Notes: generated by a model from the sequence alone, not told the origin. Shown: positions 1-5,607, numbered from the stretch's first letter. The stretch: DNA of 62,891 nucleotides from Candidatus Omnitrophota bacterium (GCA_049517335.1 JBEKSD010000007.1:1-62891); one strand, 5' to 3'. Made by a program: numbers and translations.

Positions 1-584
1 ATCCTTTTAGTCATATCTATGCCAATGCCTGGAGCCCAAGCACCAGGACTGGAAGTAGCGCCATTTAAATCTGCACCTAGTTTATTCGGGTCAAGATGCT
101 GGTATTTACCTGTTGGAACTTTAAGTTGGAACATACCATCTATATCTGGGAGCCAGCCTTTTTCTTCTATGGCACAATAACGAGCAAGCAAATAGCTGTC
201 TCCTAAACCAGCATCGTGGGCGCTTAAGCCTCCCTGCTTGATATAATTCTCTTGGTTAGTAATTTGACCGGCAATCTCGAGTTTTTCTGTAATGCCGTAT
301 TTTAAAAGCAATACTTCCTGATATTGATATGCCTTATCACCGCTTGGCAAAGTTTTATAATCACCTTTTGAATCAAATGAACCTCTTGTCATATTATAAA
401 AGAAAAAAGGCTGCAGCGAAAACTTATTTTTACCGCAGAGAGGTGCAGTCCAGGTAGTAATCGGGCCGGCAGAAGACGGATTCCACTCTTCCGGAGTTAG
501 AGATACCTCTTCTGCGAAGGCGTTTGTTCTTATAGCGACAAGTGCGAAATATATGAAAAACAAAAGAAAAGCCTTGCGTAGCAT
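1..584 (-). CDS. Outer-membrane beta-barrel 'transporter' (MetA/phenol-degradation-like), 3'-truncated by window edge
   Basis: Not in ORF track. Read manually from ATG at 584: MLRKAFLLFFIYFALVAIRTNAFAEEV (signal peptide) ...LKYGITEKLEI...GLGDSYLLARY...QLKVPTGKY, open to the window end. YG.T..LE, G.GD and .PTG motifs typify this family. Confidence 0.6.
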   Translation of the reverse strand, partial: MLRKAFLLFFIYFALVAIRTNAFAEEVSLTPEEWNPSSAGPITTWTAPLCGKNKFSLQPFFFYNMTRGSFDSKGDYKTLPSGDKAYQYQEVLLLKYGITEKLEIAGQITNQENYIKQGGLSAHDAGLGDSYLLARYCAIEEKGWLPDIDGMFQLKVPTGKYQHLDPNKLGADLNGATSSPGAWAPGIGIDMTKR

Positions 585-601
585 AATACTACTCCATTGG
601 C

Positions 602-1495
602 TTAGTTCTGAAAAGCTTGTTTTAAAACCTTAAGGTTGTCTTTCATTATATTGATATAGGCATCATAGTCATCCGGCCCGGTTACTGCGGGATCAAGAAC
701 GTATACTTTTGCGCCTGTTTCCTTAGCTATAGCTTCTATTGCAGCGGCTGGATACTGTGGCTCGCTAAACAATGCCGGAATACCGTTCTTTTTAATAAGC
801 TCAATGGTATCGGCAAGTTCTTTTGCGCTGGGCTCGCTCCCTGGCTCCCTTTCTACTACAGCCGCGATTGTTAAGCCAAATTCCTGGGCAAAATAAGGGA
901 ATGCCTCATGAAACGTTATAATTGATCTACCCTTATAAGGAGCTAATGCTGAATGCATCTTCTGACGTAGCGCTTCAAGCTTTACTACATAATTAGCCGT
1001 ATTTTTTACATAGAGTTCTTTGTGGCTAGGGTCAAGTTCTCCCATTGCCTTACCTAAATTTTTTACCTGGATTATCGCATTAGAAATACTCACCCATAGA
1101 TGCGGGTTATCTCCTTCATTCCCCTCCCCTTTGATTAAAGATATTCCTTCAGATAGCTGTATTATTTTCAAATTGGGATGCCGCGCTATAATTTTATCCA
1201 AGAACGACTCCATCCCTGCACCATTGGCCACAAAGACCTGCGCGTCAGTAAGCTTCTTCATATCATTAGTAGTAACTGTATAATCATGTAAACATCCAGT
1301 GAGCGGTGGGGTAAGGTTCTGAACTGAAATACCGGGAACATCTTTTGTGACATTTTTCGCCATAATATAAACCGGATAGAATGAAGCGACTACCTTGATA
1401 TCTTTAGCCTCAGCGACAGCAGCGCCGATAGAAATAAAAGAACAAACCATAAAGAAAATAGATAAAATGAACGCGGGAATACGATGTCTAAACAT
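602..1495 (-). CDS. znuA: Metal (Zn/Mn) ABC transporter substrate-binding protein, ZnuA/TroA family
   Basis: Signal peptide; CLHDY, NPHLWVS, TFHEAF and LDP metal-ligand motifs. Confidence 0.85.
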   Translation of the reverse strand: MFRHRIPAFILSIFFMVCSFISIGAAVAEAKDIKVVASFYPVYIMAKNVTKDVPGISVQNLTPPLTGCLHDYTVTTNDMKKLTDAQVFVANGAGMESFLDKIIARHPNLKIIQLSEGISLIKGEGNEGDNPHLWVSISNAIIQVKNLGKAMGELDPSHKELYVKNTANYVVKLEALRQKMHSALAPYKGRSIITFHEAFPYFAQEFGLTIAAVVEREPGSEPSAKELADTIELIKKNGIPALFSEPQYPAAAIEAIAKETGAKVYVLDPAVTGPDDYDAYINIMKDNLKVLKQAFQN

Positions 1496-1525
1496 ATTCT
1501 CTCCTTTTTAAGCTACAAAATTATC

Positions 1526-1819
1526 TTATGATATTTTGAAAACTAAAAAAGGGGGTGCGCGGGAAAATTGGGTAGCGAAACGAGGTACTGCTGGTAGAGT
1601 AAAAAAAGGTAAGCAGCAAAAATAGAAGAATGCGAAAAAAATCAATAACGACATAACAGAAGAAACAAAAACAGTATTATTATGCAACCAAAGGCAAATC
1701 GGGCATTCATGCCCATCATCTCCATCATGATGCAATCCGTGAGAAAGCGGGTGTAATATCACTATTCCAAGAAAAACAGCAAAAACAACCAGCAATAAAA
1801 ACGATGCTTTATTTCTCAT
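1526..1819 (-). CDS. DUF2946-like small membrane/leader peptide (His-rich, CxxC, C-terminal RAPP)
   Basis: Start moved to ATG 1819, overlapping the zur stop (ATGA). TM helix, HPLSHGLHHDGDDGHECPIC, SRAPP near the C-terminus. Confidence 0.7.
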   Translation of the reverse strand: MRNKASFLLLVVFAVFLGIVILHPLSHGLHHDGDDGHECPICLWLHNNTVFVSSVMSLLIFFAFFYFCCLPFFTLPAVPRFATQFSRAPPFLVFKIS

Positions 1820-2232
1820 TTGCACTTTGAACACAATCCTTCTATTTGCAATTGATGTGACTCTATCTTTGCATTAAGCTTATTTTCGATAAACCGTGAA
1901 ACACCTTTAAAATTACAAAAATCGACTTCTTCCACCTTCTTGCATTTACGGCACGTAAAATGGTGATGATGTTCGTACGGATGGGCGCAAAGCATATAAC
2001 GCAATTGACGATCTTCTGACAAAGACCGAATTAAAATGCCGGCTTTGGAAAGCTCATCTAATATTCGATAAACTGTAGGTAATCCCAAGGTAGGGAGTTT
2101 ATTTTTTAATTTCTTATAAACTTCGTATGGCCCCATGCACACACCACTATCCTCAAATAGACTGATAGCGGCCTTACGCCTCGGAGTTATTTTTAGTCTA
2201 TTATCCTTTAATGTTTGCAAATGAGATTCCAT
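1816..2232 (-). CDS. zur: Fur-family repressor, probably Zur
   Basis: ITPRRKA, GLPTVYRIL, HHHHFTCRKC and C-terminal GLCSKC; heads a znuA operon. Confidence 0.85.
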   Translation of the reverse strand: MESHLQTLKDNRLKITPRRKAAISLFEDSGVCMGPYEVYKKLKNKLPTLGLPTVYRILDELSKAGILIRSLSEDRQLRYMLCAHPYEHHHHFTCRKCKKVEEVDFCNFKGVSRFIENKLNAKIESHQLQIEGLCSKCK

Positions 2233-2244
2233 GCCTTACTCCAT

Positions 2245-2265
2245 AAATAGAAATCATTTCTATTT
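2245..2265. promoter_or_regulatory. Zur/Fur operator (perfect 10-1-10 palindrome)
   Basis: AAATAGAAAT-C-ATTTCTATTT just upstream of the zur RBS. It matches the B. subtilis Zur box AAATCGTAATNATTACGATTT at 16 of 20 positions. TTGACA (-35) on the minus strand at 2285-2290. Confidence 0.85.
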
Positions 2266-2290
2266 GTATCACAGGCTAAGTTTTTGTCAA

Positions 2291-2452: not shown

Positions 2453-3424
2453 CTAGTTGCCTGTACCCGATTTTCCAACTTGTAGAGAACGAGGATTAGA
2501 CACGGACTCGTAATTCACACCCGCGATGTGTTCGTTCTGGATAGCTTGCTGCAGGACGGACAGGACGTCTTGGCACTGAAACAACACCTTGCGCTTCTGC
2601 CCCAGGGACATGGCCAAGGATCGAACGTTCGTGTTTTCGCGAGAGAGAACAAGGATACGGCCCCTGACCTCGCTGAACCGGGCGTAGTCCGAAGTTGCCG
2701 CTTCAAGATCGGGATCACTGTGAAGTTTTGGGAGCGAGGCCAAACCACCCAGATCCTTGCGGACCTGCTGATCCTCCTTGGCCATCAGTGCTTCCAACTC
2801 GTCCATTTTCTTATCGCTTTCTTCCGCGATATGCGGCGCAAGCAGAGTCTGTATGCGTAACGCTGCGGTCTGGGCGCCGAAAGCAAGCAGCGCCACATTT
2901 CCGGCCTCCGGGGATCCGGCGCTCTTCGCCACGAGCCTAGAGAGGACGGTGTCCATTTCCTTGAGCGCGTCAGCGGCCGGGCCAAAGGCCAAACTGTAAG
3001 CTTTGATGTTGGTGTTCTTGACTGCCAGACCCAGCAGGTCGTTGTCGATGTGTTGGAGGTCAGTAAAAACCTTGGAGAATTGCGCAAGACGGGCTTTTTC
3101 GCCCTGGGTTCCGCCAGCCACCAGGAGTTCCCCTAGTTCCTTGCGTTCCCGCTCCACCTCCGCCGTGGCTGCACGTGCCTGGTCTGCGAAAGTCTGTGAG
3201 TCTTGATCGGTGATTGCCAAGACCGCGCTCTTCTCAGCTTCTGAGGCTGAGGCCAGCGTTAAGCGCATCCGAGCTACCAAGTCTAGCCGCTTGGCCTTGA
3301 AAGCGAGTTGCTCGGCGGGGCTCTGCTCTGTTTTAAAATGCAGCACTACGAGCATAACCACGAGCAAAATCACCGCCCCGGTGGCCATCCACAGAAATTC
3401 CTTGATGCCGGGCTTGATTGTCAC
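2453..3424 (-). CDS. Membrane-anchored MCP four-helix-bundle-like sensor domain protein without a signalling domain; GC-rich
   Basis: GTG start with AAGGAG RBS. One N-terminal TM, then two helical repeats (ASEAEKSAVLA; LLAPHIAEESD..MDELE). Visibly higher GC than its flanks. Confidence 0.6.
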   Translation of the reverse strand: MTIKPGIKEFLWMATGAVILLVVMLVVLHFKTEQSPAEQLAFKAKRLDLVARMRLTLASASEAEKSAVLAITDQDSQTFADQARAATAEVERERKELGELLVAGGTQGEKARLAQFSKVFTDLQHIDNDLLGLAVKNTNIKAYSLAFGPAADALKEMDTVLSRLVAKSAGSPEAGNVALLAFGAQTAALRIQTLLAPHIAEESDKKMDELEALMAKEDQQVRKDLGGLASLPKLHSDPDLEAATSDYARFSEVRGRILVLSRENTNVRSLAMSLGQKRKVLFQCQDVLSVLQQAIQNEHIAGVNYESVSNPRSLQVGKSGTGN

Positions 3425-3789: not shown

Positions 3790-4572
3790 TTACTTTTTTG
3801 CCGAAACCTTTATGCTCGCAACCGCCTTATTAATTCCGTCTCTCTCTAAATCTGTCATGTTTTCAACAAGATCACTGATAACCTTATCTGTTCCTATATA
3901 ATCGGTAAGTGACACAGAATCTTCTCTTATAACAGTCACCTCTCTAAACCCTGCTTTTTTTATTTTATTAAGATAATCTTCTTTGTGTAATGCACCGGCA
4001 ATACAACCAGCATGCAACTCTGGTGATTTTAAAACCGAATCTGGTAAATCTGCAAGAAGTACCATATCAGAAACCATAAGCCGGCCACGAGGCTTTAATA
4101 CTCTAAATGCCTCATCAAACACTTTTTGCTTATCTTCCGAAAGATTGATAACGCAATTACTGATAATGCAGTCGGCTATACTGCTATCCAAGGGGAGGTT
4201 TTCAATTTCACCTAATTTAAACTCAACATTTTTAAAACCGGTCTTTTTAGCATTGGCCCTTGCTTTATTAATCATATCCTCTGTCATATCTATTCCAATT
4301 ACTTTACCTTTATTCCCCACTCTTTTTGCGGTAAGAAATACATCTATACCACCCCCACAACCTAGGTCAATAACCGTCTCCCCTTCTTTCAATGAGGCAA
4401 GTGCAACGGGATTTCCACAACCTAACCCCATATTGGCTTCCGAAGGAATAGAATTTAAATCATCTCTGGAATAACCAACCTTTTCTGAAACATCAGTGTT
4501 CTTAGAACCGCAGCAACAGCTCTTTTTCTTCTTGGCGATATCGCCATATACCGTTTTTACGAAGCCCTTCAT
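3790..4572 (-). CDS. arsM: Arsenite S-adenosylmethionine methyltransferase
   Basis: SCCCG, MGLGCGNP, IDLGCGGG (SAM binding), IISNCVINL and GCIAGAL motifs. Confidence 0.85.
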   Translation of the reverse strand: MKGFVKTVYGDIAKKKKSCCCGSKNTDVSEKVGYSRDDLNSIPSEANMGLGCGNPVALASLKEGETVIDLGCGGGIDVFLTAKRVGNKGKVIGIDMTEDMINKARANAKKTGFKNVEFKLGEIENLPLDSSIADCIISNCVINLSEDKQKVFDEAFRVLKPRGRLMVSDMVLLADLPDSVLKSPELHAGCIAGALHKEDYLNKIKKAGFREVTVIREDSVSLTDYIGTDKVISDLVENMTDLERDGINKAVASIKVSAKK

Positions 4573-4590
4573 ATCAGCTACCTTTCTTTA

Positions 4591-4911
4591 CTAGAACGTC
4601 ACCACTTTATCGCTCTCCTTGACTATTTCATACATGTCCTTCATCGTATTGATCGGGCAGATTTCCGTGCCTTCCTGATTACGGAACTTGATGCACGTTC
4701 CACATGCGAGAATTTTACCGCCCGACTTTAAGAACTTTTCTGCTTGCTCAACTGTGTTAAACTTTTCAGTGCTTATTTTCTGGTACTCAACGCCTTTACC
4801 GGTCAAAAAGACCTTCACTTCATCCTTCTGTCCAAGACAGAAATTGGCATACCTAAGTGCATTCCAGCAGGTTTCCGCATCGTTACTCGAAATAATCACC
4901 CCTATTTTCAT
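4591..4911 (-). CDS. DsrE/DsrF-like family protein
   Basis: VKVFLTGKGVE, ILACGTC, ESDKVVTF. Confidence 0.8.
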   Translation of the reverse strand: MKIGVIISSNDAETCWNALRYANFCLGQKDEVKVFLTGKGVEYQKISTEKFNTVEQAEKFLKSGGKILACGTCIKFRNQEGTEICPINTMKDMYEIVKESDKVVTF

Positions 4912-4925
4912 TTGCGCCCCCTTAC

Positions 4926-5291
4926 TTAATGACAGCCGTGCTGTGCGCAGGCATTCTCTACGGTTATTTCTTCGAGCTCTCCTGACTTGAATTTCTTGAT
5001 TATCTCAGCCACGGTTTCGCCGGCTGCCCGGTAGGCTTTAACATTGGCTTCATTTAATTTCTGCACTGCCCTCATTCCCATGCCTTGGCAAACAACCGCA
5101 TCAATAGATGATGTACCCAATACACCTATCGGATGACACATGCCATGAGAATGATGGGCATTGGTATTGTCAACGATCTTAAAAGTTTCTTTCTCTGTGT
5201 CATAAATAGTAAAGTATGGAGCACTTCCGAAATGCCCATAGACCTTAGCATTAAAACCTTCCTTATTTTCCGTGGGTATACATATTCTCAT
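4926..5291 (-). CDS. NifB/NifX (dinitrogenase FeMo-co biosynthesis) family protein
   Basis: VYGHFGSAPYF, HGMCHP, GMGMRA, C-terminal CAQHGCH. Confidence 0.85.
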   Translation of the reverse strand: MRICIPTENKEGFNAKVYGHFGSAPYFTIYDTEKETFKIVDNTNAHHSHGMCHPIGVLGTSSIDAVVCQGMGMRAVQKLNEANVKAYRAAGETVAEIIKKFKSGELEEITVENACAQHGCH

Positions 5292-5310
5292 TTTAGAACT
5301 CCTTTCTTAG

Positions 5311-5607
5311 TTATTTTACCTTTTTGACTATACCGCCTTCTATTTTTAACGCCTTGGCGTGCAATAAAACGTCCGCAATCTTCTTGTGGGCAGAATTAAT
5401 AATGTTTCCGAAGGTCTGCCGGGAAATATTCATTTTCTTGGCTGCGTCTTCCTGATAGAAACCATCAAAATCCGCAAGCCTAATTGCCTCTAATTCATCC
5501 AAAGTAAGATTTATTTCTTCCAGCATATCTACAGGTATACCTCGGGGTTTGAAGTAATTCGTATCCGGGCTACACCTTATTCTTCTACATCTACACGGCC
5601 TAGACAT
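5311..5607 (-). CDS. DUF134 HTH regulator
   Basis: MSRPCRCRRI, FKPRG, ELEAIRLAD, QEDAAKKMNISRQTF. Confidence 0.9.
   Translation of the reverse strand: MSRPCRCRRIRCSPDTNYFKPRGIPVDMLEEINLTLDELEAIRLADFDGFYQEDAAKKMNISRQTFGNIINSAHKKIADVLLHAKALKIEGGIVKKVK

Follow-up and report, generated by a model that had tools for sequence, protein, structure and literature searches.

So far, copper is the only metal for which sensing by arrest peptides has been shown, in the leader proteins CruR and CutF. CruR (Bp2923) of Bordetella pertussis is the prototype of the DUF2946 family, PF11162 (PMC9426467). It arrests translation in vitro at a RAPP motif, a tetrapeptide that is depleted in bacterial proteomes (PMC12992588). 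In the arrest proteins ApdA and ApdP, RAPP acts by blocking peptide-bond formation, with its two prolines in the P and A sites of the ribosome (PMC10951233), and HAPP is a documented arrest variant (PMC10987492). Small proteins with RAPP or RGPP motifs have been surveyed upstream of genes for TonB receptors, YcnI, PCuAC, PepSY and thioredoxin (PMC12992588), and metal-linked leaders carrying RAPP or poly-proline motifs are an already described kind of element. Here we report on an open reading frame (ORF) of 97 codons in a stretch of 62,891 nucleotides, which we refer to as the window, from the 1.45-Mb genome of a Candidatus Omnitrophota bacterium (GCA_049517335.1 JBEKSD010000007.1:1-62891). 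Based on its sequence and that of its relatives, we consider this ORF to be, with reasonable probability, a cis-acting metal-sensing ribosome-arrest leader of the CruR/CutF type that serves a metal-uptake operon.

Several characteristics make this leader distinctive. It scores below the Pfam threshold, it is second in an operon in which it is coupled to a repressor gene, it carries an extended set of His and Cys residues, and it precedes ZnuA-type genes in a phylum from which such a leader is not known to have been reported. A non-exhaustive literature search returned no paper linking a DUF2946 leader to zinc, ZnuA or a Fur-family gene, and no ZnuA, PF01297 or Omnitrophica entry was found in the supplements of PMC9973294 and PMC9426467.

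Organization of the locus and architecture of the leader

The operon lies on the minus strand in the order promoter with palindrome, Fur-family gene, leader ORF, znuA and a gene for an outer-membrane protein, the last of which runs off the contig at position 1. The relevant features, in window coordinates, are as follows.

2245-2290, minus strand: promoter and operator as read from the sequence, with a -35 element TTGACA (2290-2285) and a -10-like element TACAAA (2268-2263)
2245-2265, minus strand: 21-bp perfect palindrome AAATAGAAAT-G-ATTTCTATTT (2265-2245), overlapping the -10 element
1816-2232, minus strand: gene for a Fur-family metal-dependent repressor of 138 amino acids (PF01475, 85.7 bits)
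1526-1819, minus strand: leader ORF, 97 amino acids and stop; its ATG overlaps the fur TGA as ATGA
1754-1801, minus strand: codons of the N-terminal hydrophobic helix (residues 7-22), a signal-anchor or export segment preceded by R2 and K4
1688-1753, minus strand: His/Asp-rich codons (residues 23-44) with the candidate metal site H37-x-C39-P-I-C42-L-W44; CPIC at 1705-1694
1562-1687, minus strand: codons of the hydrophobic spacer (residues 45-86), of fixed length and poor sequence conservation
1550-1561, minus strand: RAPP codons CGC GCA CCC CCT (residues 87-90), with Pro89 at 1555-1553 and Pro90 at 1552-1550
1541-1640, minus strand: stretch rich in C and poor in G (C 27-38%, G 10-12%), where Rho might load
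1526-1549, minus strand: leader tail FLVFKIS and stop (1528-1526), variable among relatives
1503-1552, minus strand: predicted mRNA hairpin in which CCUUUUU (1552-1546) pairs with AAAAAGG (1509-1503)
1493-1506, minus strand: znuA Shine-Dalgarno sequence AAGGAG (1506-1501) and start codon (1495-1493)
602-1495, minus strand: gene for a ZnuA-family substrate-binding protein of 297 amino acids (PF01297, 247.6 bits)
3-584, minus strand: outer-membrane protein gene, first 194 of 309 residues, with the rest on contig C10

A preliminary description of this ORF had noted a transmembrane helix, a His-rich stretch with a CxxC motif, and a RAPP motif (codons 1561-1550) approximately 55 nt ahead of znuA, all of which are borne out by translation of positions 1526-1819 of the minus strand. 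Specifically, residues 7-22 are hydrophobic (Kyte-Doolittle value 3.39) and give way to the His-rich segment HPLSHGLHHDGDDGHECPIC at residues 23-42, which ends in CPIC (residues 39-42). A second hydrophobic stretch at approximately residues 50-73 precedes RAPP at residues 87-90, after which seven residues (FLVFKIS) complete the protein. RAPP had been placed eight codons before the stop, which is a small slip: seven codons intervene, and the stop itself is the eighth after the two prolines. The znuA ATG at 1495 follows the last proline codon by 55 nt and the leader stop by 30 nt. An AlphaFold2 model (mean predicted local distance difference test score 75.6) depicts a helical hairpin with helices at residues 4-28 and 40-73, in which the His and Cys ligands cluster at the turn and the C-terminus is unstructured. 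The nature of the N-terminal segment was judged from hydropathy and this model.

The occurrence of RAPP at this site exceeds chance. In a crude proteome of the genome the motif is found seven times, against 2.2 expected, and six of these occurrences reside in a single ORF of 14,258 amino acids, whereas the seventh is that of the leader, seven residues from its C-terminus. The 14,258-amino-acid open frame (contig C4:21-42797, outside the window) contains one RGPP in addition to its six RAPP motifs. If RAPP does stall ribosomes in this host, it would have to be tolerated or context-dependent inside this protein.

A side observation concerns the RNA encoding the metal site. The codons for G-H-E-C-P coincide with a small GC hairpin, GGGCA-UGAA-UGCCC (window 1700-1715, minus strand), behind which comes a U-rich tract. 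A scan for terminators flagged this element, although such sites are no more numerous in the region than chance would allow.

Comparison with CruR, CutF and other known systems

CruR and the leader are both small upstream ORFs that encode an N-terminal export segment, a CxxC motif, a spacer (45 residues in CruR and 44 in the leader) and a C-proximal RAPP, and both are followed by metal-uptake genes. Sister loci of the leader clade even precede a TonB receptor, as cruR does, and in both systems the stall is expected to keep the downstream genes on. The two also differ. Our leader has 97 amino acids compared to 145 for CruR, its Pfam score is below threshold, and it possesses an extra conserved His cluster (H23, H27, H30, H31 and H37). 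Homologues of cruR head their operons, whereas the leader is second and overlaps the stop codon of a Fur-family gene. The intergenic region spans 30 nt and carries a predicted hairpin over the ribosome-binding site, in contrast to 162 nt and Rho-dependent termination for CruR. Finally, the leader precedes a ZnuA-type binding protein and belongs to the phylum Omnitrophota.

The DUF2946-like leader CutF of Rhodobacter capsulatus (cutFOG) likewise combines an export signal with a Cys motif and has its proline stall site at the C-terminus. In that system, a short intergenic stem-loop covers the next ribosome-binding site and is melted by the stalled ribosome (10.1101/2025.02.05.636593). The hairpin predicted at our locus may be its counterpart, and in this respect the likely mechanism resembles that of CutF more than that of CruR. 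However, CutF uses CxxxC and an EF-P-sensitive PPP where the leader has CxxC and RAPP. CutF also controls a detoxifying oxidase and is itself switched on by copper, whereas the targets of the leader are uptake proteins and the sign of the response is probably opposite. It is important to note that not all CutF relatives are copper-specific (PMC9973294).

An arrest motif near the C-terminus of a small protein that has an N-terminal localization signal is also characteristic of ApdA, ApdP, the RQH family and SecM (PMC7897499, PMC10987492, PMC10951233), and the RQH family (RAPP/HAPP/QAPP) and the leader clade both include HAPP variants. Unlike the leader, which has metal-uptake neighbours and a conserved His/Cys block, these arrest peptides monitor Sec or YidC and precede sec or yidC genes. 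A further comparison can be made to the Zur/Fur-znuABC systems, with which the locus shares a Fur-family gene, a palindrome over the -10 element resembling a Fur box (7-1-7-like) and a ZnuA-family protein with three His ligands. It differs from them in that the regulator matches no Zur equivalog and the sole perfect operator in the genome is that of its own promoter. Moreover, a single transcript carries first the repressor gene, then the leader and then the genes under the repressor's control.

Given this architecture, the leader very probably works like members of the DUF2946/CruR family. Its best Pfam match is PF11162 (DUF2946), at 19.9 bits against a cut-off of 23.7 (E 0.0013). The alignment pairs residues 27-90 with profile positions 52-117 and spans CxxC through RAPP. 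Matches to PF11162 at E<0.1 are also found for 27 of 41 clade members, the best at 1.3e-4. Furthermore, the nearest named ESM Atlas cluster, as judged by language-model features, is 'putative DUF2946 family protein' (score 0.94, 182 shared features). The CxxC, the C-proximal RAPP, the spacing of about 45 residues between them and the N-terminal hydrophobic segment with R2 and K4 ahead of it are thus all features held in common with DUF2946 proteins and CruR, whereas the model score and the position within the operon are not.

Conservation and distribution of the leader

A search of 5.8 billion proteins yielded 41 relatives of the leader with lengths of 63-107 amino acids, the named ones originating from metagenome-assembled genomes of Candidatus Omnitrophica. 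In the alignment of these 41 homologues (A1), residues H37, C39, C42, W44, A88, P89 and P90 are invariant, and R87 and S86 are nearly so. The frequency of the majority residue is high in the N-terminal helix (0.79), the His/Cys block (0.85) and the arrest block (0.86), and far lower in the spacer (0.47) and the tail (0.36). Despite its variable sequence, the spacer has an almost constant length: the gap between CxxC and the RAPP or HAPP motif is 44 residues in the window and in 43 of the 44 related loci that were parsed for this distance. HAPP replaces RAPP in eight close relatives.

More distant relatives retain the same design. A profile search of 1.8 billion representatives produced 56 proteins at E<1e-3. 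Relatives with 18-30% identity have an N-terminal helix, the pattern H..H..CxxC and a hydrophobic spacer, followed by SRAPP, RSPP, RGPP or HAPP at 1-10 residues from the end. The gap from CxxC to the arrest motif is 43-45 residues in 40 of 49 distant relatives. H27, C39 and C42 are invariant or nearly so at this distance, and when all three alignments are considered (A1 as well as A2 and A3, which include distant relatives), C39 is invariant and C42 invariant or nearly so.

The tail beyond the two prolines is free to change, with lengths of 1-17 residues among related loci, and most close relatives have their stop one codon past PP. Six T residues follow the Pro codons in the window (1546-1551) and in loci L011 and L013, whereas most close relatives, such as L012, L016 and L022, have five. 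The additional T shifts the stop from one codon to 7-13 codons past PP. This change in the T-run is a natural frameshift without apparent cost.

The leader ORF was found in 25 of 401 sampled genomes of the phylum. Searches with general annotation tools provided little further information. NCBIfam offers no equivalog for the leader, the regulator or the binding protein, and an Rfam scan produced a sub-threshold speF match only, on the opposite strand. A promoter and terminator scan gave nothing above chance and missed the TTGACA/TACAAA promoter because its -10 element is weak.

Gene context, operator and regulator

The genomic surroundings of 47 related loci, mostly labelled Omnitrophota, bear on the leader's role. 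In all of them it precedes the first envelope gene of a metal-uptake cluster, with a gap of 12-90 nt. The downstream genes are of several types: ZnuA, as in the window; an OprB-family porin followed by ZnuA-ZnuC-ZnuB; a TonB-dependent receptor with ExbB, ExbD and TonB; or a DsbD_2-like membrane protein with TPR and unknown genes, followed by ZnuACB. A Fur-family gene is located immediately upstream, with a stop/start overlap, in 38 of the 47 loci, which makes the leader the second gene of the operon there as in the window, and the nine loci without this arrangement include truncated ones. Two loci that lack fur (L006 and L037) carry GGAG at a normal distance before the leader ATG. The comparison suggests that translation of the leader is elsewhere coupled to that of fur.

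Transcriptional autoregulation by the Fur-family protein appears well supported. The palindrome AAATAGAAAT-(C/G)-ATTTCTATTT lies over the -10 element of the fur promoter in essentially every locus, about 35 related loci having it in this place. In the window genome, the perfect palindrome is unique to this promoter, and the next best site has two mismatches and lies inside a gene. Further operators did not emerge from a search of the whole genome, so the regulon offers no hint as to which metal is sensed. All NCBIfam equivalog models score the regulator far under their cut-offs, with 81.9 bits for Fur, 75.5 bits for PerR and 39.6 bits for Zur (NF008646, cut-off 167). The closest solved structures are Fur proteins, and a second, stronger Fur-family gene is present on contig C13. 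Thus, the regulator can be called Zur-like by context only.

The best NCBIfam match of the binding protein, below cut-off at 152.9 bits, is the zinc protein AztC. The positions aligned with its residues His70, His132 and His196 are His ligands in the zinc protein AdcA (PDB 7jj8), and Asp268 also occupies a metal-ligand position. Going only by this three-His pattern, zinc is our best guess for the metal. Among cluster A-I binding proteins, a three-His set, with His in the third position rather than the Glu of Mn and Fe binders, marks zinc binders, although TroA-like proteins with three His ligands also bind other metals.

The outer-membrane protein gene is split between contigs C7 and C10, as judged from a homologue (locus L026) that matches residues 1-193 on C7 and residues 197-309 on C10. 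The operon can consequently be followed across both contigs, with C10:1-2398 containing the end of this gene and then DsbD_2-like, TPR and 190-amino-acid genes. The full operon is therefore fur-leader-znuA-omp-dsbD_2-TPR-unknown, without znuBC. A second znuA (71% identical) is found with znuC and znuB on C24:514-3099, behind a transporter gene and without fur, leader or palindrome. Thus, the genome appears to encode one binding protein under putative leader control and one complete ZnuABC system that has no leader.

These results allow the interpretation offered in the preliminary description to be judged as partly supported: it is right in kind and overreaches on 'Zur', on 'zinc' and on formal membership in DUF2946. 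Its assignment to a CruR/DUF2946-type leader agrees with the motif architecture, the gene context and the outcome of the PF11162 search, for which this family is the best match even though the threshold is missed. The proposed control under Zur finds no support in the regulator, which does not reach the Zur equivalog and scores higher with the Fur and PerR models. A transcriptional layer beneath a second, translational one does gain support from the conserved palindrome at the fur -10 element, as Fur-family control without the Zur identity. The contrast drawn between an ABC binding protein here and a TonB receptor in Bordetella is accurate for the window, yet sister loci do precede a TonB receptor.

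Proposed mechanism

We propose that the Fur-family protein represses the operon promoter through the 21-bp palindrome, and that once the operon is transcribed, the leader would be translated by coupling to fur via the ATGA overlap. RAPP would then block peptide-bond formation with Pro89 in the P site and Pro90 in the A site, a placement chosen by analogy to the CruR toeprint (PMC12992588). When Pro89 is so placed, the distance to the peptidyl-transferase centre amounts to 47 residues for C42 and 62 for H27. The ribosome exit tunnel is approximately 30-40 residues long. From these distances, at arrest the hydrophobic spacer would fill the tunnel, with residues 50-73 inside it, and the whole His/Cys block would have just emerged.

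While stalled, the ribosome would unwind the 5' arm of the hairpin and expose the znuA ribosome-binding site, such that znuA, and probably the following genes too, would be translated during the stall. Metal bound at the emerged His/Cys site, or membrane insertion modulated by this site, might then shorten the arrest, after which the hairpin would re-form and synthesis of the uptake proteins would fall. This metal-off sign is favoured both by the logic of an uptake system and by CruR, in which metal relieves the stall. The outcome would be a fast translational layer atop the repressor, and the repressor and transporter genes could be expressed at different ratios from one mRNA. Within this scheme, the motif architecture, its conservation, the gene context, the operator and the hairpin prediction come from the sequence analysis. 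What we infer is that arrest and metal binding occur, which sign the response has and, from context, that the metal is zinc-type.

We also considered a more specific version of this scheme, which we hold only tentatively and judge to be rather unlikely as stated. The leader might serve as a nascent-chain zinc sensor in which an emerged Cys2His2-like site (H27, H37, C39 and C42) binds Zn(II), and compaction or insertion of the chain pulls on it to free the RAPP arrest. If so, such a zinc-sensing leader would mirror in nature the zinc-finger force-sensor experiments with SecM that were reportedly performed by Nilsson et al. in 2015.

Evidence from the predicted mRNA hairpin

The predicted hairpin connects the arrest site to the start of znuA. 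Its 5' arm runs from the A-site Pro codon through the next Phe codon to the first U of the codon for Leu, and its 3' arm AAAAAGG covers the first half of the znuA Shine-Dalgarno sequence. The minimum free energy is -14.6 kcal/mol (z = -2.8, with 2 of 200 shuffles as good, and z ranging from -2.2 to -2.8 across folds), and this stem is also the centroid structure when 101 nt are folded. The helix is retained in 13-16 of the 16 ZnuA-type loci. For loci of the ZnuA and TonB-receptor types, the nucleotides predicted to pair with the Shine-Dalgarno sequence fall almost entirely inside the footprint of a RAPP-stalled ribosome, and most of these loci use synonymous codons that rank within the best 2-10% for Shine-Dalgarno pairing.

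The OprB-type loci might possess a different RNA switch. In L004, L005, L007, L030, L034 and L036, two copies of UUAACCGC follow the leader, one of them across its stop codon, and these copies can pair with AUGUGGUU at the start of the porin gene.

Evaluation of the arrest-leader hypothesis and its alternatives

Several observations count against the mechanism that we favour. At the most general level, many RAPP-containing proteins do not stall ribosomes (PMC10987492). The leader also does not reach the PF11162 gathering threshold, scoring 18.9 bits in the genome scan, and the 401 sampled Omnitrophota genomes yielded no above-threshold DUF2946 protein. Because of these two results, any homology to CruR is remote and mostly motif-based, and convergence instead of homology is possible. 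We treat the leader as a DUF2946-like remote relative and not as a formal Pfam member. With regard to the hairpin, the window codons CCC CCU pair no better than 26% of the synonymous alternatives (0.26), and the CCUCC:GGAGG core is partly an automatic result of Pro-Pro codons facing a Shine-Dalgarno sequence. In OprB-type loci the Pro codons are CCG or CCA and do not pair with the Shine-Dalgarno sequence. RNAalifold analysis of 16 ZnuA-type and eight TonB-receptor-type loci kept the helix with zero compensatory pairs. A first impression of compensatory changes in the flanks of the helix was not upheld by a flank-only test across locus types, which was weak (-2.97 vs -2.13 kcal/mol). Lastly, masking the stalled footprint in a 181-nt fold does not free the Shine-Dalgarno sequence (the probability of being unpaired falls from 0.25 to 0.14), since it re-pairs with an upstream U-rich stretch of the leader. 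Thus, a hairpin switch needs trailing ribosomes or folding kinetics to prevent this alternative pairing.

Two of the competing explanations retain the arrest peptide and change how it acts. In one, the stall would operate in the manner of CruR by blocking the loading of Rho, and release would permit termination before or within znuA. We regard this as an unlikely principal route, which could nonetheless act together with the hairpin, and both routes predict that the stall keeps the downstream genes on. Rho-dependent termination is the demonstrated CruR mechanism, for which the rut site was mapped to a C>G region (PMC9426467) comparable to the last 100 nt of our leader (1640-1541, with C at 27-38% and G at 10-12%). 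The genome encodes Rho, and this route would account for the OprB-type loci in which pairing between Pro codons and the Shine-Dalgarno sequence is lacking. However, the C-rich stretch is inside the translated ORF, the intergenic region is A/U-rich and only 30 nt long compared to the 162 nt in Bordetella, and intergenic regions of 12-90 nt in all related loci leave little untranslated RNA. The other explanation reverses the sign of the response, as in CutF. External metal on an exported His/Cys loop would prolong the stall and create an AND gate with the repressor, so that synthesis of the transporter would require both an inactive repressor (a starved cell) and the presence of metal outside. 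The N-terminal anchor with R2 and K4 on its N side would indeed put the His/Cys loop outside the cytoplasm, and CutF stalls on periplasmic copper and needs its export signal (10.1101/2025.02.05.636593; PMC9973294). On the other hand, arrest at RAPP is intrinsic and withstands EF-P, which sets it apart from the PPP of CutF (PMC12992588), and the documented precedent for uptake genes is CruR, where metal turns uptake off (PMC9426467). Furthermore, judging from the established tunnel length, C42 at 47 residues from the P site would be barely past the tunnel and the translocon. We therefore consider this sign reversal to be improbable.

Other explanations dispense with arrest or with metal. The ORF might encode a stable two-helix membrane protein that binds metal or hands it to the transporter, with RAPP having no regulatory role, and this possibility gains some appeal from the AlphaFold2 helical hairpin with His and Cys residues clustered at the turn and from the high conservation of the N-terminal helix and loop. 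We nevertheless find it quite doubtful, because it leaves unexplained the invariant APP at a fixed distance from CxxC, the freely varying tail, the poorly conserved sequence of the second helix, the scarcity of RAPP in the rest of the genome and the strict position before differing uptake genes. In addition, CruR and CutF were both undetectable as stable proteins in vivo (PMC9426467, PMC9973294). A role as a Sec or YidC monitoring substrate of the ApdA/ApdP/SecM type, reporting membrane-insertion capacity without metal input, would fit the combination of RAPP with an N-terminal localization signal seen in the RQH family (PMC10987492). This seems highly improbable given that no secA, secDF or yidC gene lies downstream, that all downstream genes are metal-uptake components, and that the most conserved block is the His/Cys cluster. 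A metal-sensing arrest leader of the CruR/CutF type thus continues to be our preferred reading.

If the leader is in fact a nascent-chain zinc sensor, control of the CruR/CutF type would extend from copper to zinc, and a leader placed between repressor and transporter genes would uncouple their expression after transcription. In the leader clade, the arrest-leader design is found together with a Fur-family repressor and with uptake genes of the ZnuA type. The clade is thus a compact system in which to ask if metals other than copper, probably zinc, can be sensed by nascent chains, and how a translational switch can be layered on a classical repressor. The Pfam DUF2946 model misses whole clades, in that none of the 401 sampled Omnitrophota genomes has an above-threshold match and yet 25 carry the leader. 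We believe that the annotation of the leader ORF should read regulatory leader instead of hypothetical membrane protein.

Additional observations

A listing of sequencing runs places the window DNA in peat metagenome runs and includes no RNA run. Just upstream of the operon promoter, a gene at 2453-3424 (minus strand) encodes a 323-amino-acid protein that has a single membrane helix at its N-terminus and matches the four-helix-bundle MCP sensor module PF12729 weakly, below threshold (23.2 bits). Farther upstream, a run of small genes at 3790-5607 (minus strand) encodes an S-adenosylmethionine (SAM) methyltransferase with an N-terminal CCC motif (PF13847), a DsrE-like protein, a protein with a dinitrogenase FeMo-cofactor-binding domain (PF02579) and a DUF134 protein. 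This run looks like a metalloid- or metal-handling cluster that is unrelated to the leader.

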